The notes under the pieces were generated by a model. The model did no database searches, was not told where the DNA came from, and saw only the letters and a program-made list of their open reading frames with translations. DNA of 63,622 bases, the filler included, from Hyphochytrium catenoides (taxonomy: Eukaryota; Protista; Hyphochytriomycota): the NCBI GenBank assembly GCA_900088475.1. It is 6 parts of 6 records of this genome, joined end to end, with 100 filler letters (N's around TTAATTAATTAA, not from the genome) between each part and the next. Parts side by side here need not be neighbours in the genome. Positions count along the whole stretch, not along the records: positions 32,070 to 62,505 come from FLMG01001738.1; 5 more parts are not named here. One strand, written 5' to 3'. Within the stretch, counting starts at the first letter, position 1. Every line of letters starts with the position of its first letter. A program made the translations under genes and the position numbers. Below are positions 1,331 through 63,622 of this stretch, in pieces.

Positions 1331-4255
1331 AAACATCAGAATATTATCCTAGTCTGAGAACCGCTCTATCTATAATAAGGGTCACACATGCTTCCTGAAG
1401 CTATTATCGTTCATGGCCACCTTGCCACTAGAGCCACCCTAGCACATGTTAGGTCGCTCTTCTCTTTTCGAGAAAGAGAGAGAAGCCGAGAGAGTGGAGA
1501 ATGAAAGCTGCGTCAATCACAGGTACTCGTACAGTACTGCTTCGTCAGAGTTGTTTTTTTTCAAATTGCTGACGAAGCTCAAGAGCTCGCGCTGCGATGA
1601 TGGCGGTGGCGTAGCAGGTGATTGATGGCGATGGCGTGTGCGCTGGGCGGTGAAGAACACAGTGGACAAAAAGTTAGGCAGAGAGTGCTACTAAGCCCAT
1701 ACTCGTCAAGCAGCACCTCAAGAACTATTGGCTCACGCACTTCTTGACTTTTGACGGCATGCGACGAGGGTTCACCTACTAACCACATGTAGGCGACGTG
1801 GTGCTGGAACTGTCTTTCTGTCAACATAACAACTTTCTTGCCCATGGTTGCCCAGACCACATCGGACATGTATGAAACAGCCCTAGGAAAGGCAGATAAG
1901 CAAAGTAGTATATTTCTACCATTACACTGGATAAGCTGATGACAATTTGATCACTCTGAGAAATGCGGCCTTTCTAGGTGTTGGCTTGATGTGCGCAGTC
2001 ACTATGCAGGTGGCGAAGGGCATTGACTCATGTTATTATAAGGCCAACTGCCGCTTGAGCGACTTCTATCTTCTCACGTAACACTATCCCGTTCGTCCTC
2101 GATAGTACTACCGCGACATACTTTAGTACGGAGCGTACCCCTCTGTGAGATAATGGCTTTGCCCTTCTGCCTTGCGTTCCGTCACGAACGGCCCTGAATC
2201 CGGGTTCAAGCTTTAGTCACCGCGATGTTATGGTAGTGTAACTCTTCTCGGTTCTCTGAGTAACTGCAGGCTCTCGTCCAGAAAGACGATTGTCTGTCTC
2301 TATTACATGGCAGCGCGCTTCACGCTTTTGGCCTAATCATAATGTTAGTACTAGGAGGGGAAGGAGTGTGGCTACAAGCAGTCTATTCGTTCAAGTGGTA
2401 TGATCTAAGGACCTTTCTCTCACGATCCGTTAGCTCGCTCCCTTCCCCTGTATCGGGCAACGAGACTATCGGCATGCCCTACATTGCAGCTTCTACACAA
2501 GCACAATCTCCCACGACGGACAAGAAATATGATTTGGATAACAACATGAGCCCCAGAGAAAGGTAGACCTGTAATATCATGCCTGTAAGCGACTCACAAT
2601 TAGAAGAAGAGCCTTTGCAGCGGACCGGCCACATGGAGCACGGACACATCATTCTCCGTTCCATCAAGAGATTGTACAGCCAGGGGAGCACTGTGGGAAA
2701 GCCAGCAAGTGGCTAGCCGGGTTGCGAAAGAGCCTCTGCCGCTGGTCTATCAAAAAAGTAGGTACTCATGTCACAAGGAGCCGATGATCTGCCTTTGATG
2801 TTGATGGGGAGAGGTAGTCGACCATCAGTCTAGCTAGGGACATCCTATTATTAAGATCAGCGAAGATGGGCCACAGTCGCCCATCCTCTTTCATCATCCA
2901 TTGCTTGCTTAAGACACCCGAGTCTCCAATCCATACAAGAGACACACTTGAGGCACCCGAGTCTCTTGGTAACGGACGAGCAAGAACAGCTTGTACAGCT
3001 TGCCAAGACGACGGTCAAGAGGTGGAACTTCCATTACAAAAGTGGGAATTGTAGGGGTAACCCCAAAATGCCATAGAATCGTCACCCCAGACCTCCTTCA
3101 CTCTTGAACAGGCAGTTCGCTTGCCAAGAAGCGCTAGCATTTGTTAATAATCTTACGTGTTTGGAAGCTACTCTGCTTACTTATCTTGGCGTTATCTTGG
3201 CGTTGCCTCTATCACCTTCCTGGAATCCCCAACAAACCATTGCCTGTACGTCTAGACTACTGGTTCTTTGGCGAGAAGGCTATTGAAATGCGAGGAGTAG
3301 TGCGTGATATCTTTCCCTTCTTCGCCCTCCTTTTCAAGCAGCAAGGCGAGCCTAACTTGGAGATCTCGCATGTGGGGTTAGCTGCCTTCCTCCTCTTCAG
3401 AACAATAAGATAGACTATCGACGGCTGACGAGTATTTGACTGTTTTGAGAGGTAAGAGAATAGTTGCCAGTGCCTGCAGGACAGGAAGGAAGGAGTTGCT
3501 AAAGGCTTGGCTTGCAGAGCAAGAGTATAAAAGGCCTAGAATGTTCGTGTTGCTTCTCTCTGTCTCTCTCCCTCTGTTGGCTGTTCTCTTGCCCCTTTGT
3601 GGACAAGAGAAAGGAGCAAATCCACAGCTTCAACCTGAGGAGTTACGGCATGAGCATAACAACACATATTATTGTAGGGAAGATAGGGTTAGCACAATGT
3701 AAAAGATATTACTACTCCTTAGAAAAGCTCTGGTGTAACGAACCTTTGAAGCGCTGCCTTCTGATTGGCTCCTAAGGTGCACTAGTCAGTCTGCCTAAGA
3801 TCTCAGCCACTCCCTGCGCCCAGGGTCCGCCATGGATCNNTAGATAGAAGGAGCAGTACCCTGTGCCACATTTTTCATCTATTTTTAGAACTACCAATCG
3901 CTTGCAAGGATGTCTTTGCTGCCGTATCTAGGGCGAGAAGCGTGGCAGTGTGACAGAAGAAGGGGAGGGAGACAAGTATCTGTAGGCCAAAGGAGGCAGT
4001 GTAAGACGAAACATCGGAGGTATTTATTGATCGGCTTCCTTCAGCACATCCAGCGCCAGATGAACCAAGCGGCGGTGAAGCAAGTCACTACACATTCTCC
4101 GTCAGACGACACAGTCACTCAGCGCATCAGGCAAGTACTCCACAGCTTGCCGCCCAAGCGCCGCCCAGATTGGCACACCGCACACAGCTCTTGCCCAACA
4201 GCCGTAGCTACCAGCCCCACTGTAGTAAGGACATTAACCCGGAGCAGGAGCAAAA

Positions 4256-5140
4256 ATGACTGCGTTGATCTCGTTCGCTCGTGCGGCTGCCGGTATATTG
4301 GCTGTTATCGCCATCCAAGCCGACGCTCATATGCAGGTGCAAAATCCCCCTCCTCGAGGGTCCAGGTTCAACACTGGATACTCTCCGACCGACTATAACC
4401 TCATGGCTCCTGCGACAGCCATCTGCCAGGGAAAACCAGCGGGCAATGTCGTTAAGACCCTCGTGGCAGGCGAGCAGTCTTCCATCGAATTTGTGCCATC
4501 AGGCTCACCTCACGGCGGAGGTGGATGCCAGATATCTCTTTCCTACGATGATGGAAAGACCTTTACCGCTATCCACACTACAGATAGGTCATGCCCACTG
4601 GAGAATAGCATTACCTTTACGGTGCCAGCTAACGCACCAAGCTGCGAGAAATGCGTTCTGGCATGGACTTGGGTGCCCACCATCAGCGGAGGACCAGAGT
4701 TCTATATGAACTGTATGGACGTCAGCATCAAGGGAACTGCGACAGAGCCTCTCACAGGACCTGCTACAATCTTCGTCAACCTCCCAGGATACCCCACACG
4801 CAAAGGAAGCCTCTTCTTTGACTTCGACCCATACAATCCCGCCAACAACAACGCAGAGGCCCAAAGAGCTATGGCGGCACCAGTGCCTAATGTGACACCG
4901 GCACCTTCCCCCAGCGCCACTACTGCACCCAATCCACCGGCTGCTTCGCCCTCAGTATCAACTGCGAACAAACGCCCATGTATGGCTGGCAGTGATTCCG
5001 ATACGATCCTGCCACCTCCTCATTGTGGCACGTGCAAGGGGTGCCTGTGGACGTATTCGACTGGTACTCAGTGTTTCCCTAACTACCCTCGTGTCAGCTG
5101 TGAAGTGTATAAGGACCACGGGTATACGTGGTGCTCTTAA
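4256..5140 (+). CDS. Secreted lytic polysaccharide monooxygenase, AA11-like (chitin-active family), with Pro/Thr linker and C-terminal Cys-rich module
   Basis: Signal peptide ending ADA directly before His (mature N-terminus HMQV = His1 of the copper histidine brace); second His in SPHGGGGCQISLSYD; AWTW and EFYMNC (axial Tyr) motifs typical of AA11. Single intronless ORF of 294 aa. Confidence 0.85.
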   Translation: MTALISFARAAAGILAVIAIQADAHMQVQNPPPRGSRFNTGYSPTDYNLMAPATAICQGKPAGNVVKTLVAGEQSSIEFVPSGSPHGGGGCQISLSYDDGKTFTAIHTTDRSCPLENSITFTVPANAPSCEKCVLAWTWVPTISGGPEFYMNCMDVSIKGTATEPLTGPATIFVNLPGYPTRKGSLFFDFDPYNPANNNAEAQRAMAAPVPNVTPAPSPSATTAPNPPAASPSVSTANKRPCMAGSDSDTILPPPHCGTCKGCLWTYSTGTQCFPNYPRVSCEVYKDHGYTWCS

Positions 5141-43628: not shown

Positions 43629-46103
43629 TTATGCCATCTCAGGGCCATTAGTGCACTCCACCAATTGCTGAAGCTCCAATTTGTCAGCAGTACTCAAAAA
43701 CGGAGAAAGCTTATGTATCTCGCGGGCCAGAGCTCGCTCCTTACCGTCATCTGCCACTCCTCCCCGCTTCTTTTTCTTCTTCTTCTTTGGGTTCTTCGCC
43801 CGCCAAACTGCCCAACAGATGAAGAGTGCTGTGGCTATTCCTCCGACGGTGAGGAGGATCTTGTTCACTGTGGCTAGGTCGTAAAAGTTCTTCAGAGCAA
43901 GTTTCAAGAGAAGGAGGCCAGAGACAAGCCAGATCACAAAGAAAATTGTAGCCGCTGCCCAGCTTCTCTCCAGGTTATCAGCGTCCTTCGCTTTCTCCCT
44001 GGCATCCACCATCACCTCTGGAGGTATGAGGTGCAGTGCAAGCCAAAGAAGACAAGGCAAAATTACTAAGTCATCTAGGTAGCCAAGCACAGGGATGAAG
44101 TCGGGTATAAGGTCGATGGGACTGAGGGCATAGGCGATGGCGACAACTGCAAGAATCTTGGGGCAGAGCCTGGTCCTGGGGTCCTGGGTAGCAAAGTATA
44201 TGGCGGCCACCTCTCTCTTCAGCCCCTTGGCCTGCCTTTTGAGGTAAGCTTTTAACTCCAGGAGAGAGTCTAGGACGAGTTGGCCAGCGCTTTTGGGCCC
44301 TTCTTCTTCTTCCCGTTCCACCTTGCTTTGTCCTCTCTTCACCCCTTGATCAATGCCAATCTCTGTGTATTCTGCCGCAAGCTCTCCCACCAGCGCTGCT
44401 CTTCCAGCATTCATTCCATAATTATGCTTAGCGTCTAGCACCCCTAGAACTAAGGTGGAAAAGGAGCACAGTACCGCAAGACCCAGAAGAGATAACATCC
44501 CTGTCTCATAACTTCCCGTCAGATCCCGTAGATAGCCAATCGTCACATGTCCCAGTACCCCACCCACAGCGCTAAAGACAGTCATTATGCCGTAAGCCAG
44601 CCCATAAAGCGAGCTTGAGACGCTGTAAGGAACCAGGGTCATCACAATCGTTGAGACAAACGTCGAGCTAAGTGAGAGAAGTAACATACTGCTCACAGGA
44701 GAGAGAGAAGAGAAGGTGAGCAAGGTGTAGGCCCCAATGGTGAGCATACCAGCTAGAAAGAGCACATGCAGCCGATGTCCGTACTTATCAATCGCTAGAC
44801 CAACCAGGGGAGCAAATAGAACAAGGACATGGCTCAAACTTGCGATGATAGCTGCTTTGTCAAGCTTGTACCCGTACTTCTCCACAAAAAAGTTTGACCC
44901 AACTGTGTAGAAAAGCCGGAAGACGTTTTCATAACCTAAATGTACCATGACAAGAAGCCAGAAGGCAGCTCCAAGAGAGAGAAAGTTGCTTTTCCCTTCT
45001 ACCTCCCCACATTCCTCATCCTCATCCGCTTCCTCGTGGACGGGGCTTCTCCTATCCCTGTCGACTAGTCGTGGTTCTGTCTCTACTGACAACGATGAAC
45101 CAGAATCACGAAGCCACTGCTCTGCAGCTTTGTCACCCAAGGCAGCAGCGGCAGTGGCCCTCGCAGTCTCTCTCCTCTCTCTTCTCCGCATGGCCAGAAA
45201 GAGCCATCCCGAGACGAGTGATAACCCACAGATGACAGCTGCGTACCATCCTGCGGCCTCATAGCCTCCATAGTGCAGGGCCACGGGAGCCATCGTAGTC
45301 TTGCTGATAATCTTACTGAAGTTTGAGAATGCCATACAGACGCCTACCGCAAATGTGAGCTCCCTACCCGTAAACATGAGCCCCACCATCGCGTGCTGCG
45401 ACGTCACCACTCCTGCCTGTCCAGTCCCAAAGAGAGTCGCTGCTACTAGAGAGAAAGGGAAAGACTTCATTGAGAACGACATGGCCATAAGGACCTGACC
45501 AGCCAATGCTACCAGCAAGAAGAGCGCAACAAATCTCTCCCCTTTATTATCCAACAGGTGGCCAGCCCAGAAAGGGACAATCATGTTTGGCACCGTCATT
45601 GCACTCATGATCATGCCGTACCGAGTATTATCTATAGCAAACTCATCATCCGCCAAGAGCAAGCTTGCAATAACGGACATTCCATTCTTCACAAAGTGGT
45701 CGCCCAGAGCGAAAAGTGCGATGAGCACCAGAAGAAAAAATCTGAAGGAAGTTGCTCGAGGATGCCAGAACTTCCACCAAGGAGCTGGCTCAAGGCGTAG
45801 AAGAAGGAGCCCTGCAACCGTGTCTGCTCCTCGGATTAACTCCTTTTCTTCTGCCTCTGTTGAAGTAGGTAAAAGTGATAGAGCCTCTAGAGACTCATTG
45901 CCTATAGTGGTGACACCCTGAAGCTTTGTCATCGTAGAGTAGAGTTTGTGCTCGTTGATGTCAAAAAGGACGGAGCTGCCGTGTGGTTTGTCGGCGCTCG
46001 TCGCTTTTGAAGGACCCTGCACTCTGACTTTTGAGCTTCTTGCCAAAACAAGAAGACCGCGTAGGCTGCCATCTCTCCCCCGTTCGTCTTCGTCTGGGAA
46101 CAA
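43629..46103 (-). CDS. Major facilitator superfamily transporter (MFSD1-like) fused to a C-terminal DUF1232/YkvA domain; true start probably further upstream
   Basis: 824-aa uninterrupted ORF: ~12 hydrophobic segments with MFS motif-A variants (GHLLDNKGER; GLAIDKYGHR), GYLRDLTGSY, then KREVAAIYFATQDPRT...AYALSPIDLIPDFIPVLGYLDDLVILP (DUF1232 signature) plus two more TM helices and a poly-Lys tail. Confidence 0.88.
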   Translation of the reverse strand: MFPDEDERGRDGSLRGLLVLARSSKVRVQGPSKATSADKPHGSSVLFDINEHKLYSTMTKLQGVTTIGNESLEALSLLPTSTEAEEKELIRGADTVAGLLLLRLEPAPWWKFWHPRATSFRFFLLVLIALFALGDHFVKNGMSVIASLLLADDEFAIDNTRYGMIMSAMTVPNMIVPFWAGHLLDNKGERFVALFLLVALAGQVLMAMSFSMKSFPFSLVAATLFGTGQAGVVTSQHAMVGLMFTGRELTFAVGVCMAFSNFSKIISKTTMAPVALHYGGYEAAGWYAAVICGLSLVSGWLFLAMRRRERRETARATAAAALGDKAAEQWLRDSGSSLSVETEPRLVDRDRRSPVHEEADEDEECGEVEGKSNFLSLGAAFWLLVMVHLGYENVFRLFYTVGSNFFVEKYGYKLDKAAIIASLSHVLVLFAPLVGLAIDKYGHRLHVLFLAGMLTIGAYTLLTFSSLSPVSSMLLLSLSSTFVSTIVMTLVPYSVSSSLYGLAYGIMTVFSAVGGVLGHVTIGYLRDLTGSYETGMLSLLGLAVLCSFSTLVLGVLDAKHNYGMNAGRAALVGELAAEYTEIGIDQGVKRGQSKVEREEEEGPKSAGQLVLDSLLELKAYLKRQAKGLKREVAAIYFATQDPRTRLCPKILAVVAIAYALSPIDLIPDFIPVLGYLDDLVILPCLLWLALHLIPPEVMVDAREKAKDADNLERSWAAATIFFVIWLVSGLLLLKLALKNFYDLATVNKILLTVGGIATALFICWAVWRAKNPKKKKKKKRGGVADDGKERALAREIHKLSPFLSTADKLELQQLVECTNGPEMA

Positions 46104-49100
46104 GACCCCTTGCTCTTCTTCGTATACGATGGTTGCTTTCTGGTGCCCTCTGCAGCGGCCTTTGTAACTTATGGTGCTTCCCTGTTCCCCCTTCTCCTTC
46201 TATGAAACTCTTACACGGAGATCTTGTTTCGAAGAGCCATCTCATAATAAAGGGCTGAGGTAATCCCCCTCGTCTTACGTCCCGCTCCTCAAGGCGACTC
46301 CTTGTCACATGTTTCTCCCCACCATGTGCTTTAGAAGTGCTGCAACCTAGTAGTTTAGTCATCGTACAAGGTCATGTCCATCGGCTACCTTCTTGCCTTG
46401 ATAGTCGCCTTCAGACACTCGTCCTGCACCACCAGGACTACTGGGAGAAGGGGAGCCGGTCTCCTCCTCCTCGTCTGCTGCTCATCAACATCACATCCTC
46501 CTCATCAGCAGCAGGTGTAGCACCAACGCCAGCAGGAGAAATGAAGCAGCAGCAGCAGGCAAAGCATGAGCAGGAGCAGCAGCAATTGAAGAGGGAGAAG
46601 ATCCTTTGCCAGCAGTTCCAGAGCTTGCTCCTTATCTTCATGAGCGTCATCATCATCATCACAACCTGCACCAGAACCATCATCCGACACTCAGTTCCTA
46701 TGTTATTATGTTAGCCGCCCCGCTAGCGGCGAATATTGAGGTCACTGGACTGACGGTTGACTGAGATAGTAGAGTCCATCGGAGAAACAGGCGGCGTAGG
46801 ACTTGGTGATAGTGGTCACTCTGCCTCCTTTTGCTATCTCTTTCACTGCCAGCTTATAACAATAGCAAAGCATTGGCTACGCTCTGTCTCGCTATGTGTT
46901 GATCCCAGCTGTCCCCCAGGTGCTACCATTTGTGGTAACGGTTGATCGGCTGGAGGGCTGACCGATGTAGTTCTATAAAGGGAAAGTGCCGTCAGTGCAT
47001 CGTCAAAGCGACGAGAAGTGCGATCGACATCAGCACCACTACCAGCAAGCAGCAGCTGTGGCACAGGCTCTAGCCTAATTAAGCAGTTCACTCAGCAGCA
47101 CCAGGACCTTGAATGATAGTTGAGCGGCAGTCTGGACGTCAGAGCATTTCTCCGTTTGATCATTCCATCCTTCCTCTCCTCTGATGTCTTCGTGGGTCGT
47201 AGACTAGCTTCTCCTCTGGTGTCAAACAGACGAGGTATTAAAGTACGTCAGTAAGGGGGAGAAAGGCAGAGCATCTCTTCGTATGGCACTACCGCTCGCT
47301 GCTAAACGACGGCCGCGCTGTAGTATCAGATGACGACGGGGGAGAGGATAGTATATATAATCATCATGTGAAAGTACAAATTATGTAGGAGTCGGACTTT
47401 CTTGTTTCGATGCTGCATTCTTGGAGGCAATTTGGGTGAGGAAAAGCACGTTCCTATGGTGAGAACCCTTACTTTACCGCTAGACCGGAGCAGTACCCAT
47501 GGGTTATTACTGTTCTTGATGCTCCCAGCGCGGCGACCCTCTTTGTCGACGAGCCCAATAGGAGCTTTTCTTTTGTGTCACAACCCTGTCTAGATGGAGT
47601 GAGAAGCAAGATAATAAATTGCAAAATCTTAGCCGCGCATTCGATGGAGCTTATTGCTTTATAAAATCGAAGCAGATAAGTGACGTCTAGTAGCTTCTTT
47701 CTCGTACGACTGGCACACACTACTGTGCTCTTCTTCTCTCTGCTAATCCCTGTCATAGATACGTCCAATGATAAGCAACAATAGCTCTATATCTACACAT
47801 CAATAATAAACTTGTCGCCAGCAGTGCCATACCACGCCTACTGATCCTCAAATCGGGGGTCAATGGTGTTAGGTGGAGCTTCATGTTATATATTTTTCGT
47901 AGGACAGGTGCTTGCTGAGGGTTCGTAGGTCAGACAGTAGGATACATGCAGATAGACATGCTCCTCGGAAGGTTAGGATGGGTCGTTCGCCAGATCTCCT
48001 AGTACTGTTATGTTGAGAGCCTTCAAGGCTCAATAGGGTTGCTCTACCTCTCAATAACTCGTCTTCCTGAGAGGCGGAGAATGGATATTGACCGTGAGAA
48101 GAGAGAACAGCTGACAGTGAGGAGTGACCAAGCCCTGTTACATGCTGCCATCATAATAACTCGAAAGCAAGGGGCAAGAACCCGCTCATTTCCTTATACA
48201 TAGAGACTCTCCTGCGGCATACAATCACCAAGCTTCAGGATACTACGAAGAAGATCAACCACTTTAGCTCGGACCTACTAATGCTAGAAGTGGAAGAATC
48301 ATTTATAGACGATCCATATACCTCATTAAGCGAGTTTTGAATAGTAGAGAGCTTGTGGGGCAGCCCCTGACCGCGGGCAGTGGATCTCTTAGCTGATGGA
48401 CATCAGTAAGCCGCAGACTTTGCGCATTCTGAACTAGATAACATCTCCGGCGGAGAGGACGAGTGGCTCTTTTGTTAGCCTAGGAGGAAGGCAATAGGTA
48501 TTCGCCTGATGAAAGGGCTGCGGTGTAAGCGTTAGGTCCTAGATGACCTCTACTCCCTCCCTCCTGATTTGGCAAGAACCTACTTGGCAGCTATCCCCAA
48601 TTGGCAGTCTTCTTTCGTCTCGGGTATCGAACGATTTAATTCAGCATACGTAGAGTGTCTTATCCATCTTAAATGCCGAACCGTGGGCTCTCCTCCTCAG
48701 TCAGGCCCAGCGATTGCATCCTTCGCTGCGCACAGCAGCGGTAATCGTAAAGAGGATTCCTCATCAGTCGGCCCTAATTTGGTCTTTATGCCGATCACTA
48801 GTATGGAAACGTGCCCCTTGCTAGGCGTCCCGCCCCACCCCGCCTTATGTCCATGTCTTATCCCACACCTGTCCTCAAAGAAGTCATTGGGTATCAGGCG
48901 CCTGCTTTCCTTTCGACACAACGAACATAAAGTCCACTGCGCAAGAAGGTGAACCGCTTAATGAGCCATGAGTGCTCCTCCTCCTCCTCCTCCTCCTCAG
49001 TCATCATGCTGCTCGCAACTTGGCCTCAACCCTAGCTCCTCCTTTTCACAGCAGTAGGTGCCCTGTCCTTCCTCAACGGAGCTGCGTGCGTTGCTTTCCC

Positions 49101-54846: not shown

Positions 54847-55686
54847 AGAAGCCAACCGACGAGGCAAGGAGCGAAGGTCCATGCCAGTGTTGCTTGGTGA
54901 TGATGGCAAAGATCTCAAGGAAGTGCAACTGCTATCATCATGTGTTTTGCAGGCTATTGTTGGTAACATTTTCCCCACTTCCAAAACATGTCTACAAACT
55001 CAATAAGTTCTGGGCAAACAGTGATCAAGCAAGTAATCAAAATTGCTACTGTAGCCCACTCTTTCATCTGATCAAGTGAACAAAATTTCCACTGGGTGGG
55101 GAGTTATGGAAACAATGAATGTTACCCTTATTGCCTGCAATGATATTTGACAAATAATGGTGTCAATGGTGGCTGATGTGAGGAATCATGTCATCAATTT
55201 CTGAATGCAATTTTTGTTTACTGATTAGGATGCAGTTGGTGTGAGCTATTCAGAATGCAATTTGTGACCAATATTCAGGATGCAAATTATTTTCTGGATT
55301 TGGTGTGAGCTATTCAGAATGCAATTGTTCGTGTTATTTAGAATGTGAGCAGTTTCTGTTGTCAAAACGGTTCTGGTTACTGCTGCTCGCGAAACAGTTG
55401 TGGGTTTCCGAGTTGTGACCCATTATCCTGAAAGCATGAATGAAGGGTTCAATCAGTTATTGGCGGGTTTATTGGTAGTAATAATAGAAAGAGTGGTGCG
55501 TCACCCAAGCGCTTCATGGCCAACGCGGATGTTGGCTATGAAGTGGTAAAGATTAGAGAAAGAAGAAAATATATAGTCAATTCATATGAAGTTTAGTTTG
55601 TCAATTTCTTAAAACCGCTGATACGGTGAAGGGTATCACTCTTTCGTTGATAGCCGCCCCGCTTGCTGTTCTCTTTGGGGCACAAC

Positions 55687-57056
55687 TACAGTACAGGGTT
55701 GCACATCGGTATCGGTTAACCGATAATATCGGCAAATATCGGGAATATCGGTTCACTACCGAACGGCCAGCCGATAATCCGATATCAATGCCCGATACCG
55801 ATAGAACTATTCCGATACGATATCAACCGATATTAGTACTTCTCTCTTTTTCTATAAGCTCTATTCCATCCCCTTTCACCTAAAATGGAAGGGGAAACGA
55901 AACCACTACTACTAGAGTAATAAAGATCACCGTTCACCAACCATTCAATAAGGTAGAAGATGTATAGATCAATCCATGTACTATTACTACTTCTGAAAAT
56001 GCTTTAATTATCTACCAATGCCAAGAAGCAAAGAGCAGCAGATAGCGGAGACCGAGGAAACATATCTGGCCGCGGAGTAACAGAAGGGGCTAATTATAAG
56101 AAGGCGGACAAGGCTGAGTCCTTGGCACTAGCAAAGAGCATCCTGAAGACCCAAATCCAGAGTGAGATCAAGCTTTACCACAGGATGCCCAGTTTATCAC
56201 CCTCAGGGGATCCTCTGGCATGGTGGGGGGCAAACTCTACTCGTCTTCCCTATCTGGCGGGCCTAGCAAGAAAAGTCCTAGCTGTTCCTGCAACATCTGC
56301 TCCATCGGAGAGAGTATTCTCCTGCGGCAGCGTAGCAACACGGTAGATAAAACGAGAGCTAGACTAGCAGGGCACAAAGTAGCTGTCTTGAAGTACTTGG
56401 GTGCCACCTGGAGATTTGTAGAAGAAGAAGGATTGTTGAAAGACGCATCAACTGTACCACGGGGAGAAGCAGAGAAAATTTATGAGAGCGAGCAGAAGCC
56501 TAAAAAGTGTAGCGAGGATCAGCTGGTCGAAGTTTTAGATTAATAGTAAGAAACCATTTCTACGTCTACAATGAATATGAGGCCTTAGGGGACAGTGTCA
56601 GAGCGACTCTTGAGTAAAAAAATATAAGTCTTTCTTATTCTCCTCCGTCCCATGATGGTGGGCTTGATAATAATCATGATTTTCTTTCTCCAAAAAGAAC
56701 CAATCCAGAAGCTTCCTAACAACGAAAGAGTTCAGCTTGACGATGATGCTACCAGCGGTGAAGAACATAATGATAATAATAATAGAGCCATATCTGCCTC
56801 ACGGTGTTGCGTCTTTCTGCCATCTAGTAGTATCTTGTGGAGATCTGCAACCATCAACGAAGAATGAAGCAGCACACAACGAAGTGAGTGGGAGGGAATA
56901 GTTATTCCACGTCAAATTTGGCGATATCGGTTAGCCGACACAGCCGATATATCGGTATATCGGCACCCTACCGATATTACCGATATCTCCCGATATATCG
57001 GTGCCACTTTTACCGATCTTTCCGCTATCGGTAAATCCAACCGATATACAACCCTA
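55687..57056. mobile_element. Internally deleted hAT DNA transposon (~1.37 kb)
   Basis: Imperfect TIRs CAGGGTTGCACATCGG (55694) / CCGATATACAACCCTA (57056); 8-bp TSD GGCACAAC at 55679-55686 and 57057-57064; dense subterminal CCGATA/TATCGG repeats at both ends. Confidence 0.9.
56122..56543 (+). pseudogene. hAT transposase C-terminal dimerisation-domain remnant (frameshifted)
   Basis: EIKLY...DPLAWW...RLPYLAGLARKVLAVPATSAPSERVFSCG followed, in another frame, by VDKTRARL; this is the Dimer_Tnp_hAT signature. Confidence 0.9.
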
Positions 57057-57564
57057 GGCACAACACCGCGAGATTCTCTACGGATGTGACGTCTCATAAG
57101 AGTCATAAGAGTGTTTGGTTCCCAGAGACTGCTAACCGGTATTTTGTGCTCTAGGTTCAATTTCTTACCGTAATTCATTTCTGAGAATTCGCTGTGGGCG
57201 TCCAGTAGTTGATGGATCTTCTTTTTGAATTCCTCTTTTGGTGTCAATGTCTCGATTTCTTTGATGCTGTAGGCAGTGCCGTGCTCAGCGCATCTTGCTT
57301 GAATACCTGTGCACCAGTTATGCCACATCTTGGTGCGTTGGGAGTCGTCAGAGTACTCGTCAGTCCGGACCAAGCCCTGCCACTTCTCGTCACAATGTTG
57401 ATGTGAACAGATCACTGTCTCCTGTTCTTTGCGAGCGAAATGTTGTAACCTCTTGTGAAGGTGATGGGATTTGTTGAACGTCTGTTGGCAGTAGCCCTGT
57501 TTGTGGATGTGTAAATGGTTGTAGTATCGGTCAAACTTCTCAGGACTGCCGGTGCGAGCACAGA

Positions 57565-60500
57565 TTATGCACGTTGGTGTCTCGAGAGACAATGCTGATA
57601 AGACCAGTATACGATGTCGTCTATGGTATTGCGAACCATGTCTTTCTGAAGTCCACTCCGTGAGCAATGCGCACAGAAAACTAGTCGTTCTGTCGTACAG
57701 CGCAGCTCGTTGTCGCAGTTATGTTTGCAACCGCGGAAGAAACCGTGTGGTTTGCTATGTGTCGGGGTTATCCAATACCTCTTCCGATCACACATTGTCA
57801 GTGTTTTGAACTCGCGCCGAGTCTCCATTGTTACGCCACCACTTGTCTGGTGGTAGCACTTCTTAAAGAGTGTATTGTCAACTGATAACTGTGCGAGCTC
57901 ACGGTATGTTTGCAGGAACTGTTCGTGTGTTGTCTTCAGGTGTGCTTTGTTGACACCTTTGGCCTTCCGACAGTCTGTGCCGCTACAAAGACCATAGATC
58001 GAAGCTTTGGACCCAATGCCACGAATTCGGAATTCTCAGATTCTAGTTTAAACTTGCCAGGAGTGATATCATTCTTGTCCTTGGCAAAGAATTGGTCCCT
58101 TAGAGGATCACTGAACTTGCTCAGGAAGTCTTCGTAGGAGTCTGCCTTGACGTTAATAAAAGCTGAATCGGTATCCGTGTAGAGCAGTTCGAGGTCTTCC
58201 CTTGAGTATGTCTTCCATAGACAATTGTAAATAAAATCATAGAGTAATAGTTTAGCCATCCATAAGATACCGGAGCCCAAGTACCTGGGCGTTTTCAAGG
58301 TCACTGAAGCTCTGCAGCTGACCATGAGTGATGTTGCTGATAACTGTTTAACGCCAACGATAAGCTTTCCATGAGCTCGTTTTTAGAACTCTGTTGCATC
58401 ACTCACGATGAAGTCCGTCGTGTATTTTGACTCGTCATGTAAGCTCTTACCATAGACCGAGTTCTGGATGAGCTTGTAGTCCTCTTTAAGCGTCTGGCCC
58501 TTTTGGATCAAGTCTTCGTTGTGTTCACGTTCTCCTTCGACGATCATGTCTTGGGCCTCACGTCGTTTCTGAGTGTAATAGTCGATGAATTCTTTGTAGA
58601 CGATCTCAAATCGCATGGGGAGAATCTTCTTGACTCTCGAAAGAGTTACCATGTCATTCGCAAGCAGGAACAAGAGCGCATATGCAGGTAAAACATAGTC
58701 TGGTGCCGGTTTTAGACTTAGCATCAATCTGTCTTCTCCGGCATTGGGTTTCTTATTGATTGCTCTTTGGACACGATTGCCGAAAGGGCCAAGATTATCT
58801 GGTGGTCGCTCCTTCCTGGGTAAGACAGGAAATGTCAGCCGTTCTTCCTGTTCCTCAGTGTAGAACAGATCGCACTGGACCATACTTGACATCAAAGTGC
58901 CAGCGTCATTGAGCTCATTGTTGACTTTCCCAGTCGTTTCTTCATACATGAGCTTGCGTAGGAGGTCCTTCGCTCGGGTCGTCTTGCTAATCGGATGATC
59001 TTTTGCTTGTAAGCGCTGCACTGCTTGGGATCCTCTACGAACTCACATACTGCTTGCCCTTTGTCATCGGTTGGAAATACCAAGAGAGGTCTTGCCATTG
59101 CCCAAGGATGCATGGAATTTGCATATAAAGAATAGATCTTGCGGAACTTCGTTGCCTTCGAGTAATGGTTTAGAACAGTAGTTAGCCCTCCGTAGATTGA
59201 TTCGTTTATGAACATTGATGCTTTTCATTTGGGATGGTGTGAACGGTAGTTCTCCTATATGAGCTCTTGAACACGTTGTCTCCAAGTTGTGAAATAGTTA
59301 GATAGTTGAGGACTTCGAGACCCGTGTCTTTGAAGACGGTAGCTCGATAATTGGCGACCGCATCCATAAGTAATTCGACGTCACGGAGACAGTAGTTTTC
59401 GGTGTACGCCTTAAGGTTTGGCTCTGGCAATGAGTTCCACACTTTGAGAGCCTCCGCTTCTCGGTCGCCCCAAATGCCAGTTGGAAATGTGGACTCGTTG
59501 AACTGTACGGGATCCTTAAAGTATTCGTAGTTGAATGGTAGCTTTCCTTTGGAGACAGCATTTCTACGGCCAAACTCTTCCAGGGACCCATCACCGCTCG
59601 TTGAACACGAAAGATATGAATCTCTTGTGCTTCCGACTATAGATTCTCCACCTCAATTCCAGAATTCCTGACGCTTGGTTTACTACTCTTTCAATATTCT
59701 TCATATGGTTCAAGAGAAACGTTAAATCATAACGTGAGGAGTTATAACCCAAAATCGGGACCGTAATCTGCCTGTGAAGCAGCTCCTTTTGGAGCTTCCC
59801 ATAGATGCAATCGTGCGAACAAATGTCTTCATCGTCACACTTACAGAGGTGCTGGTATTGCGCAAGCTTTGTACTTCTTGCTTGTAGTATGTTTGTTAAC
59901 AGAATGTCCGCAACATCGTACCGCAGCCAATTGAGAAGTTCGCACCAACATCATTTTTGTTGGCACCAGAGGGTTAACTTTCGATGTGTTGGTATAGACA
60001 AACTTCTGCTTGTAAGCTCGGTCCAACGCGAGAATAGTATGGGCGTGATGAACCTGGTTGCGATCTATGATCGATTCAATGTCAAAGCAAATGTAGGTCT
60101 CATGTTGAAGTTGCTTGCCGTTGTTCAGCTCTTCGTAGACTTTGTGGACCGGAGAATACTTGAGGAGCCCCTTTGTGTACCTTGGGTTTATTTGAAGACT
60201 CCGACGGTTGTTGCAGATGTTCAAATGCTTCTGGTAGTCCTTTGGGCATTGCTGATACCTCCCAGAGCTCTTACGTTTCCACTTTTTGCCGCAGTAGAAA
60301 CATTTGGTTTGGTCTCCATAATTATGCAATTTATCAATGAATGCGAAGTGACATTCATTGTCATCAACCTGGAAACATCTAGGAAAATGTCCTCTGCCTG
60401 TTCGTGGGAGAAGATACTGCAAATGACTTCCCAGCTCTTGTTCTTTTCTTGATAGCAAATAAAAAGGTTGCAATTCGTTGCCTGGGCAAGACTCTGTAAT

Positions 60501-61746
60501 GCCTCATACTCAAAGGGAACTACTTGCTTCTGACATTGTTCTGTGTGAGAGACTTGACCTCGCTCTTTGACTCGCTTGTCTGCGAAGTCGTGCAGTTTCT
60601 TAGGATCGGATATGATGTCAGTGAATTCTTCCAAACCTAGAACGTCCAGAACAATTGGATTGGCAAGTCGTTTGTCATCTGAGTGTTTTTGCAGCCATAC
60701 AGTCGGCAACAAAAATCCTGGGCGACCAGCCTCTGCAATGGCGACTTGTGCTCTCCAAACGATATGTCCTCGTAGAGCTTCTTGAACTTCCCAATTCCAA
60801 TTGATCTAAAGACACAAAGGGCGTCTGAATTATAGACTTGGATGACACCAGGACGCTTACCCCCTGACTTGTAGCCTTTGTGGCCTATCTGTGGGCATTT
60901 TAGGACTTTGACAGTGAAGTCCTTCAGGTCATGGAGCACACGATTACTCTCATTTAATTCCGTATCCATCCACGCCTCTAACGCATTTTCAAGGGCAGTT
61001 GACACCTCTGCGACCGCCTTGGGAGTGAACACTTGGCGAAAAACTCCATTCGGGAAATAAAAAGATCGTGCACCCAGCTCTCCAGATAACTGGTTGAGTG
61101 TGCTGCAATTGAGCGAGAATTGGAAACGAAACGGCGAAGCAAGCGACCTCGTGAGCACACGTTCGACGATGGGCCTAATTGCTAGGTCAAGATGGTGTTT
61201 CCAGTCCTTGTAATGTACACCTCTCTTAAAAGAGAATGTCATACGAGACAAAACTCCGGCCACAGGCTTGCGGAGTGCATCCGTCAGAGATTGGTCAAGC
61301 TGGTCCAAGAAAGCTTCAGACCATAGATCAATATATGTTGTTGCGTGCAAATGACTCAGTGCCAAGAGGAAGTCTTTGTCGGAGTCTCCCGTACGTTCCA
61401 TTAGACCCTGACCGGTAGCATAGTCAACTACGTCTGCCGGTGACTTTGAGCTCTGGGTTGGCGCATGGCATTGGAGGATTTCGGTTGCTACCTCTTGCCT
61501 GTATTGTTCGGTCGCCTGCTCTTCAGAGATCTTCTTTCGGCGTACAATCTTTTGAACGTCGTCTTTTTGGTTTTGTCTCAAAAGCTCTAAATTTCGCTCA
61601 AAGCCATCAGATCTAACATCATCCGTCGTCGGAGAGAACTCCAGTGTAATCTCTCTCGTTTGTTTCATAAAACCAATAATAGTGTTTACCGCGTAAGCAA
61701 GATCTTCAATGGAGTCCGTAGCCATCTGGAGCTTCTTCTTGTTCAT
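57565..61746 (-). pseudogene. Protein-primed family B DNA polymerase (Polinton-type) with N-terminal OTU-like and zinc-finger region; multiple frameshifts and stops
   Basis: In order: GVIQVYNSDALCVFRSI ... ECHFAFI ... CFYC...KHLNIC; ExoI YICFDIES (~60085); ExoII GYNSSRYDL (~59735); KGKLPFNYEY; ExoIII YCLRDVELL (~59390); FINESIYGG; motif A decayed to SLYANSMHPWAM; motif B KLIQNSVYGK (~58460); motif C YTDTDS (~58175); PGKFKLE...FVALGPKL; C-terminal KTLTMCDRKRY...PHG. Confidence 0.9.
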
Positions 61747-61803: not shown

Positions 61804-62241
61804 TCAGCACAAGTTGTCAACGAACTTGACCGTGAATCCCGTAAGCGTTAACTTCGTCTTGGACATTTTTCGTAAACGGTAGTCAATCACCACGGGGATC
61901 CTCTTGTAGTCTGTCGGTTTCATTGCTTTGTCAACTGTAAAACTGTACTGGTCCTTCTGTGCGAGAAAGAACGCTTCGTTGGGGAGTCTTTTGGTAGTGT
62001 ACATTGGCCGATAACCTTGTTCGAGGGCGACTTTGGTAATGACCTTGTTCGCAATCTTCCGTATTTGTTCTTTCTCATCATCTGTTACTTCTCCTTGGCT
62101 GTTTGAAACTTCATTGATAGCTGCAGCGTCTATTCTAGACAGCTCTATGGAGGCTGACCGTACCTTCTTCAGAGCTAGGACTAGCGTAGAGTCGAGTGCC
62201 AGTGTCTCGCACAACTCTACCAGACGCTTGAACGCCGCCAT
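61804..62241 (-). CDS. Hypothetical 145-aa protein of the virus-like element
   Basis: Intact ATG-to-stop intronless ORF 57 nt upstream of and co-oriented with pPolB; natural-looking composition. Confidence 0.65.
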   Translation of the reverse strand: MAAFKRLVELCETLALDSTLVLALKKVRSASIELSRIDAAAINEVSNSQGEVTDDEKEQIRKIANKVITKVALEQGYRPMYTTKRLPNEAFFLAQKDQYSFTVDKAMKPTDYKRIPVVIDYRLRKMSKTKLTLTGFTVKFVDNLC

Positions 62242-63622
62242 TTGGTTGTTAGGTTTGATGTCACTTTGCTTTTGTCAGCTGAAGGGGGTTGGGTATAGTA
62301 TTACCAGACCTAAAGTCTAAAAGGAAAATTTATTTATACCACTCTGATGCCAGGAATCTGGATGAGCTGATGTCTGTAGAACTTAATTGAGTACCTTGTT
62401 TTTGTTTACTGTAACGGGCATATTATTTGACAGGGTGGGCAATTATTATATTATAAAAAGGGAAGAGGAGTTCGCCGCTTCATCTCCTTTAGTGGTTCTC
62501 CCTCCNNNNNNNNNNNNNNNNNNNNNNNNNNNNNNNNNNNNNNNNNNNNTTAATTAATTAANNNNNNNNNNNNNNNNNNNNNNNNNNNNNNNNNNNNNNN
62601 NNNNNTCTGAGGACCATTCTGTCAGAAACCAGAACTACTAAAGAGGTCTATCCTCCTACTATGTTGTCTTACTGTACAAAATCAGAATAAGTATGTTAAA
62701 ATGCCTCTCCTATTCCAAATCAAGCGTAGATGATGTTTGATGGTCTGGAAAAAAGGGCAAATCCACGTTACAACAAATGATGATGATTTTGTGTTCCTGT
62801 ACAACAAAATACTGTAGCAACTAAATAATCTAGGAAGACGGTACCTACAGCTTGATCTATCTTGCAGCCATAGTCGGCACCTTTATACGGGCAGAAGAAG
62901 CAATAAGAACAACAATAGGATGAGACAATAACATACCGTCTCTGAATTCTTGCTGGACCCCCATTGGATAGGATAATAGCGGCCCGTCCACTTCTTCGGT
63001 TCCTGGTGGTTCCTCCTTTGCACCGCACCTGGTAATATTCAATCTTAACACAGTGATTGTCCTCGGAAGATTTAGCAACTAAAGATGCCGGCTTCGACAA
63101 CGGACCATAAGGTGTGACTTTACAAACTCTTAGAGGCGACAGATTGCGTAGCAGATTGTGTAGGAGGTTATCAACGAGGAGAACTCTGCCTTAATTATAA
63201 GACAACTTTTAGCATAATTGACCTACTAATAATGAAGGGTGGAGACTTCGTTGTGGGCTTGCTAATCCCCTTTCTCTTCACTGCTGCAGAAGCGATGACC
63301 AAGTAGACCCTGAGCATTCCTGCCTTTTGTGTGGCAAAGTTTGCTTTTTCGTAATGGGTGAAAAGACCAAGCCTTCGTACCTGCTGCCTTCTCTTCTTCC
63401 TTCTTCTTAGTAGCTTTGAATACATTTTAATAGCCCATAAGTTGGTGATCTGCTGTCTTCTCCGCCTCCTCTGCGGGTGCCCATTATCGTCCAGGACACA
63501 AGAGATTTGTCAAGGCAGCAAGGGTTCAATTGGGTTGCCTGTTATCGCAATCGTCAGCAGGATAAAGGTCCTTGACGGGGCAACTGCTGGCTTATTTATC
63601 GTGAGCACTGCATCTTCCTCTG

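Follow-up and report, generated by a model that had tools for sequence, protein, structure and literature searches.

Nuclease domains have been described on the replication proteins of several Polinton-type elements. In Polintons of oomycetes and terrestrial nematodes the pPolB2 contains a PacI-like HNH domain, and others contain a VSR domain (PMC10748475 / 10.1101/2023.08.22.554363), and the supplement of that paper gives the order Exo III, HNH, Pol A (the order of labels, not of the figure itself). The protein-primed DNA polymerases of family B (pPolBs) in Polintons bear homing endonuclease domains at differing positions, vOTU is found in eukaryotic pPolBs, and the Tlr1-like helicases carry a C-terminal HNH or GIY-YIG domain (PMC11161782); helicase-HNH fusions are described in PMC5499653 and PMC12220804. 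Nine Polintons without capsid, ATPase and protease genes are listed in PMC4028283. Here we analyse a stretch of 63,622 nucleotides from Hyphochytrium catenoides (assembly GCA_900088475.1; six parts joined by filler), hereafter the window, whose minus strand holds between 61746 and 55593 a decayed pPolB gene that appeared to run into a nuclease. We conclude that in the clade of this gene an HNH nuclease domain is almost certainly fused to the C-terminus of the polymerase.

The evidence comes foremost from intact relatives. A phmmer search with the polymerase core of the window (X at the stop) gave 1657 matches. Of the best 150, 16 continue past the polymerase end motif into a tail of the pattern YG..W..DH..P..N......N, 81 have no tail at their end and 53 are truncated or unclear. 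The top 20 matches comprise ten with the tail (P0020 with its first part only), ten truncated proteins and none that ends without a tail; the tail is present in all ten that reach the protein end. Intact relatives of 1,340-1,734 aa combine vOTU, pPolB and HNH in one open reading frame (ORF), and at the DNA level the fusion is found in a single ORF at four loci (L001, L003, L006 and L014). Counted from the ATG at 61746 the window gene has about 1,590 codons, or about 1,755 if the upstream ORF, whose match is weak, belongs to it. The original prediction of an ancestral OTU-pPolB-HNH protein of about 1,600 aa is supported.

The tail domain, about 110 aa long, is intact in proteins that are 22-41% identical. 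The active-site residues D, H, N and N are invariant in nine of nine aligned relatives. A scan of 16 tails, a set that is tail-bearing by choice and leaves out the degenerate P0020, found the His and the two Asn in all 16. Averaged over nine relatives, identity reaches 42% in the HNH core; the palm has 44% and the thumb 34%. We built a quick polymerase tree from 100 cores, after 58 of 158 rows (ten of them tail-bearing) had been dropped for coverage. All 13 tail-bearing rows fall on one branch of 26 with a Shimodaira-Hasegawa-like approximate likelihood ratio test (SH-aLRT) value of 90, unstarred. The same branch also holds 11 truncated rows as well as P0022, a chimeric model with a DAGAT domain, and P0069, a weak match to the start of the tail, both without the full tail; none of the 74 remaining rows has one. 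In a tree of 47 HNH domains, from which near-duplicates and fragments were left out, one branch (92/89) divides 19 fused from 28 free-standing rows. The window pairs in both trees with P0002, its closest intact relative. Judged from their sequences, the fused tails are one lineage, as conserved as the polymerase palm. No intein family was found in the 23 relatives scanned and no helicase Pfam match in the relatives scanned except P0030, a 1026-aa fragment whose ORF continues past pPolB-HNH into a PIF1-like helicase (E 1e-29).

The window copy of the tail can be recognised despite its breaks. Its HNH residues are spread over three pieces (Table 1), with NYG (57175-57167) and LEHKIP (57154-57137) in the frame 57718-56912. 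With a tail profile built from 14 tails, P0002 and the window excluded, the window frame 57718-56915 was the sole significant match (E 1e-6) among 2561 six-frame pieces; the same profile detects P0002 weakly (E 0.003). This frame is 35% identical to P0002 1507-1601 (96-aa match, E 9e-14), while the last polymerase frame of the window, which ends at the stop 57567-57565, is 34% identical to P0002 1407-1494. Since the two frames match P0002 in order, both map onto one intact ORF. With every break marked by an X, the piece that lies past the hAT transposon described below took the alignment with P0002 beyond residue 1601, as far as 1639. The score was best with exactly three X at the hAT insert and exceeded those of all 1000 random replacements in both control sets; with one X the alignment was not extended. 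The HNH hit expected of the rebuilt peptide was obtained through the relatives, by the profile and the P0002 alignment, and not from the window frame alone.

A hAT insertion interrupts the tail. The insert has a hAT dimerisation domain at 56167-56325 (Pfam PF05699, E 3.5e-12) and shows an 8-bp duplication, short terminal inverted repeats and a transposase remnant; further copies of it occur in public runs. Excision of 55687-57064 had been proposed: the insert is real and its right end is 57056, as 57064 counts one copy of the duplication. It had also been proposed that removal of the hAT restores the HNH site, and indeed the pieces flanking it (57093-57058, and 55685 to the stop 55595-55593) are mutually in register, but an additional frameshift near 57115-57093 sets both of them out of the LEHKIP frame. 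At 55687-55693 seven extra bases separate the left duplication from the hAT terminal repeat, and we take them to resemble a Tc1/mariner excision footprint. A sister hAT copy in two runs is without the part matching window 56006-56423 and has 11 bases of telomere-like (TTAGGG-type) filler there. The tail breaks at 57573-57590 and 57093-57112 show a short palindrome and a 9-bp tandem duplication, respectively, and may have been left by visiting transposons.

The stretch is contained in three public runs, all of one organism and one study, from which the assembly may derive. Contigs of these runs match window 57028-58100 with 0, 0 and 2 differences and without gaps, and the breaks in that part are therefore real. 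Diverged sister copies are also present in these runs. A 7-kb sister contig has 145 letters across the polymerase-nuclease junction compared to 153 in the window, and a 221-nt sister contig has a 15-letter end compared to 17. Both lengths put the polymerase and nuclease frames in one continuous register. One X1 contig crosses the hAT site without the insert. Of the differences between sister and window that entered our tally, eight fall in the nuclease frame (5 synonymous) and 14 in the polymerase frame (10 synonymous); with a further 118 rows outside these 22, the tally is to be taken as a hint only.

The window gene itself has accumulated nine frameshifts, one in-frame stop (58385-58383) and the hAT insertion. 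In a tblastn search with P0002 as query, residues 174-1601 are collinear with the gene in nine frame pieces, and the gene has the vOTU, exonuclease and polymerase motifs of a protein-primed PolB, as in Polintons. All motifs were found on the minus strand where the original prediction had placed them. The vOTU-like Cys and His motifs, a label that we take from PMC11161782, recur in seven of eight relatives scanned, the eighth being a fragment with the His motif alone. The upstream ORF may add a frameshifted N-terminus; its match to P0002 1-175 is weak (local score 51, equalled by 0 of 1000 shuffles), and BLASTP of this ORF against the whole P0002 protein gave no significant match. At position 59125, in the polymerase A motif, the assembly letter disagrees with all X1 and X2 contigs, and the defect of that motif may therefore be an assembly error. 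Downstream of the gene, four imperfect 32-nt repeats (55206-55326; spacing 25, 25 and 39) are possibly subterminal in the element. The window copy of the pPolB-HNH gene is dead and matters solely as a pointer to its family.

Table 1. Features of the decayed polymerase-nuclease gene and of its insertion, in window positions.
Feature	Position	Strand	Evidence
Last HNH piece, with second Asn and stop codon	55593..55685	-	X read-through; motif scan
8-bp target-site duplication, left copy	55679..55686	.	exact direct repeat of the right copy 57057-57064
Deleted hAT transposon (~55694-57056) plus 7 extra bases at its left end	55687..57056	+	Pfam, terminal repeats, 8-bp duplication
Short HNH piece with first Asn, ending in the target-site duplication	57057..57093	-	X read-through
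HNH domain: helical linker and first active-site half (NYG...LEHKIP)	57119..57330	-	tail profile; match to P0002
Cys/His-rich insert, putatively zinc-binding	57392..57729	-	motifs; two frames, break near 57590-57573
Decayed pPolB gene, polymerase part	57565..61746	-	collinear tblastn to P0002 174-1494, eight frame pieces; weak Pfam DNA_pol_B_2 matches
Usual pPolB end motif: CDRKRY 57792-57775, PHG 57750-57742	57742..57792	-	motif scan
Polymerase motifs A, B, C; YTDTDS 58181-58164; in-frame stop 58385-58383	58164..59125	-	motif scan
Exonuclease motifs I, II, III	59377..60089	-	motif positions; collinearity with P0002
vOTU-like motifs: Cys 60819-60802, His 60353-60336	60336..60819	-	motif scan
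Upstream ORF, possible frameshifted N-terminus of pPolB	61804..62241	-	weak local match to P0002 1-175

Between the polymerase end and the HNH domain lies a Cys/His-rich stretch. CKHNC (57729-57715) and CAHC (57675-57664) are in the last polymerase frame; CIIC (57571-57560), HLHIH (57517-57503) and CSHQHC (57409-57392) are in the overlapping frame 57718-56912. That second frame had been called ATG-less: no start precedes CIIC, and internal Met codons are present. Compared to P0002, the window has about 110 more codons in this stretch, and the other tails do not have it. It has no family match, and in P0002 its predicted local distance difference test (pLDDT) score is under 50, so that zinc binding is putative and suggested by the motifs. 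The original prediction of a zinc-binding part is thereby weakened: the motifs are found in the window and in a shorter form in P0002, as a local insert and not as a feature of the family. We also considered CIIC...HLHIH as a duplicate of the internal zinc finger of the polymerase and rejected it, as a profile of that finger gave no match.

By sequence and predicted structure, the tail resembles the endonuclease VII-like HNH nucleases of giant viruses and phages, a kinship that had been predicted and is supported by PHROG, Atlas, BFVD and profile matches. PHROG 1035 (endonuclease VII) matches seven of eight relatives tested (E 1e-5 to 1.4e-3). In the Atlas the L003 tail adjoins viral clusters, the first named one being 'HNH endonuclease family protein' (0.96). 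The model of relative P0140 (mean pLDDT 76) has adintovirus- and bidnavirus-type PolBs as Foldseek neighbours and, in BFVD, the HNH proteins of marseilleviruses, Hyperionvirus, mimivirus L246 and phages and the Bodo saltans virus intron endonuclease. Compared to solved structures (Z 3.5-6.2), its first half finds the phi29 polymerase as top match and its tail finds CAD (Z 5.5, root mean square deviation 4.3, 130 aligned), PacI (Z 4.1) and Cas9 HNH (Z 3.5-3.7), which are middling values. The P0002 tail model has the same neighbours more weakly (CAD Z 4.5). Both models show a strand-loop-strand-helix arrangement, with pLDDT above 80 over most of the HNH core. Sequence searches of the PDB and Foldseek on the PDB gave nothing significant, and cluster look-ups yielded no name that was informative. 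A profile search of longer proteins gave 31 matches, two of them fused and 29 without a polymerase motif, and one free-standing match (P0158) sits inside an intein; of 28 free-standing relatives, 20 have CxxC motifs. Near-length proteins were not found when the L003 tail was used in a word-indexed search; such proteins exist, so the sensitivity of this search is low. Relatives sought in viral contigs with five queries were not found there, nor did the window HNH frame match any viral contig.

We looked at the elements that carry the fusion at 14 related loci, thirteen from metagenomes and one contig (L014) filed in a bacterial bin. The tail profile matches nine of the 13 metagenome loci, six (three distinct elements) in the polymerase ORF and three in broken copies. 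L003 (1-12100) is complete, with 12,100 bp and 71-bp terminal inverted repeats; L002 and L012 (6454-18552) are the same element, which in L012 adjoins a retrotransposon. At L014 (234-13464), beside a kelch-repeat gene, there is another complete element; it measures 13.2 kb and its 222-bp terminal inverted repeats are perfect. Each of the two complete elements encodes polymerase-HNH together with an RVE integrase and a further protein that the two have in common (24% identity, E 3e-10). A separate RVE integrase is present at seven of the 14 loci (5 distinct elements), both complete elements included.

In the two complete elements, searches with Pfam, PHROG and NCBIfam, to which no profile or fold made for capsids was added, recognised no gene for a major or minor capsid protein, packaging ATPase or protease. 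Their frames of at least 80 aa are also free of Walker A motifs, although intron-split genes would escape such a survey. Polinton/Maverick elements typically have a 6-bp target-site duplication. The flanks of L014 show a repeat of 4 bp at most, and L012 has no right flank. The window element runs into the gap at 62506 and the window end, and no match to the integrase or the shared gene and no terminal repeats were found in the window; since the element is cut by the gap and the window end, the missing integrase match means little. The complete relatives are candidates for Polintons living purely as transposons. We tentatively suggest, as a rather unlikely possibility, that microbial eukaryotes harbour an undescribed family of self-synthesising transposons, 12-13 kb long and capsid-less, with a core of polymerase-HNH fusion, RVE integrase and one gene without assigned function, in which the fused nuclease would perform the release or resolution step for chromosome exit.

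A conserved protein without a meaningful family match, encoded beside the integrase or polymerase at L003:7182-7973, L014:3079-4422, L010:3104-3913 and L013:2058-2855, is possibly a third core gene. Small genes with signal-peptide-like starts lie in or beside elements at L003:10272-10778 (-) and L001:2433-3104 (-). The combination of a eukaryote-like kelch gene and a pPolB-HNH element in a bacterial metagenome bin indicates that L014 is likely misbinned.

We hypothesize, with slightly better than even confidence, that the fused HNH is a nickase tethered to the polymerase and works on the DNA of the element itself. In this view a homing-type HNH gene, free-standing and of the giant-virus/phage family, would have been captured once in frame, the polymerase replacing the N-terminal targeting part of the free-standing relatives. 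Nicking or debranching near the moving polymerase could help to free the integrated copy or to resolve strand-displacement intermediates, and the integrase would then insert the new copy. We propose that the HNH domain has been retained because tethered nicking helps release or resolution. If a homing nuclease were purely selfish, one would expect a patchy distribution and, after fixation, decay. Uniform presence among close relatives and conservation at the level of the palm favour a tool.

Several observations weigh against the tool reading or against parts of the evidence for it. Most Polinton polymerases do without a nuclease, as 81 of the 150 matches end without one, and the nearest free-standing relatives of the tail include one intein-borne and one intron-encoded homing endonuclease; these two points favour a passenger, and such nuclease fusions are read as parasitism in PMC5499653 and PMC11161782. 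The clustering of the tails is partly built in, because the search was seeded with the window polymerase; 14 of the 16 tails belonged to the profile seed, and the tree supports are unstarred. By itself the window HNH frame matches nothing in Pfam, PHROGs or the Atlas, and a word-indexed search brought up no homologue of greater length. Structural Z-scores are middling, with unrelated helical proteins ranked among the matches. In the window and P0002 a Glu precedes the catalytic His where the others have Asp, and nuclease activity is a prediction from sequence and models. The sister copies are seen in short pieces and may contain stops.

The alternative that best survives accepts the fusion and takes the domain for a homing or competition endonuclease without an intein, cleaving rival elements or the DNA of co-infecting giant viruses; it may be freed from the polymerase by the vOTU protease. 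We regard this as a genuine possibility, though not the probable one. The same HNH family occurs inside the intein of P0158 and matches the model of the intron-encoded endonuclease of Bodo saltans virus, whose introns bear HNH homing nucleases proposed to serve competition (PMC5871332), and HNH and GIY-YIG domains were added independently to Tlr1-like helicases (PMC5499653). However, among the top 20 matches no close relative reaches its end without the tail, the fused tails form one lineage that tracks the polymerase, no intein family matches the fused proteins, and the downstream genes vary between elements, which leaves little flanking homology for homing. A tail without catalysis, serving in DNA binding or processivity, is improbable: the Asp-to-Glu change in the window and P0002 would fit such a role, as would the predicted status of the activity, but the conserved His and Asn residues of the 16 tails and the palm-like conservation of the core speak against it. 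The idea, made in the original prediction, that the nuclease replaces an integrase was consistent with the lack of an integrase match in the window and has become very improbable with the separate RVE integrase of seven of the 14 loci, among them both complete elements. Separate overlapping genes for polymerase and HNH in the window lineage are just as improbable, for although the polymerase frame stops at 57565 and run contigs confirm the break, CIIC has no start codon before it, a single ORF of P0002 runs collinearly through the two frames, and two sister contigs have continuous frames.

Whether nucleases on replication proteins are parasites or tools can be asked cleanly of the pPolB-HNH clade, which offers natural intact genes in compact elements of few genes. 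If the HNH tail is a tool, it would fill a missing step in the release or resolution of integrated protein-primed elements.

Elsewhere in the window, a high-depth repeat just before the gap is followed by ORFs of 104 and 140 aa without Pfam match (62229-63622), which may or may not belong to the element. Closely spaced host genes near the element encode an M16 peptidase, an IF2-like GTPase and DnaJ (Pfam), and their close spacing would suggest a microbial eukaryote. An intron-free frame of 856 codons at 43629-46199 (-) joins an MFS transporter to DUF1232 (Pfam), and a secreted-looking protein at 4238-5140 (+) has weak LPMO-type Pfam matches (E 0.02).

Among described systems, the pPolB2-HNH Polintons (PMC10748475) are alike in that the HNH lies within the polymerase protein, occurs clade-wide and keeps its catalytic residues. 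Their HNH is internal and PacI-like with zinc Cys, whereas in the window family it follows the thumb and belongs with the giant-virus/endonuclease VII-like nucleases. In the window about 90 codons separate Exo III from Pol A, collinear with P0002, and no HNH is inserted between them. Tlr1-like helicases (pPolB-SF1 helicases of polinton-like viruses and transpovirons) share vOTU, the palm and an appended HNH or GIY-YIG, C-terminal in several lineages. They have the helicase between palm and nuclease and an incomplete exonuclease, while in the window family a complete exonuclease-polymerase leads directly into the HNH, and the one helicase, the PIF1 of P0030, is placed after it. With Polinton/Maverick elements, including the minority that lack capsid, ATPase and protease genes (PMC4028283), the relatives of the window gene share the vOTU-pPolB, RVE integrase, terminal inverted repeats and integration in eukaryote-like DNA; the two complete ones differ in their 12.1 and 13.2 kb, in having no recognised morphogenetic gene, in their shared additional gene and in that no 6-bp duplication was seen at L014. 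Free-standing giant-virus and phage HNH proteins (PHROG 1035, Bodo saltans virus, mimivirus L246) have the same helical linker and YG..W..DH..P..N......N core in proteins of 225-400 aa, stand-alone or borne by inteins or introns, and in the window family the polymerase is N-terminal to the HNH.

A polymerase with a C-terminal HNH does not appear in the accessible sections of PMC12721341, PMC10120064 and PMC4046053 or of the preprints 10.64898/2026.07.28.741278, 2026.06.19.733378 and 2026.10.13.758929, and a search of the literature, mostly outside subscription papers, figures and preprint supplements, found no description of the pPolB-HNH architecture or clade. The architecture had not been recognised in canonical Polintons in the original prediction. 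This is upheld for the position of the HNH, but vOTU is normal in Polinton pPolBs (PMC11161782) and nucleases, HNH included, are known elsewhere in them (PMC10748475). Nuclease-bearing Polinton polymerases are therefore already published, while the C-terminal HNH position and the compact-element clade are apparently undescribed. Unrelated nucleases, namely PacI-like HNH, VSR, GIY-YIG and now this HNH, recur on the replication proteins of Polinton-type elements.

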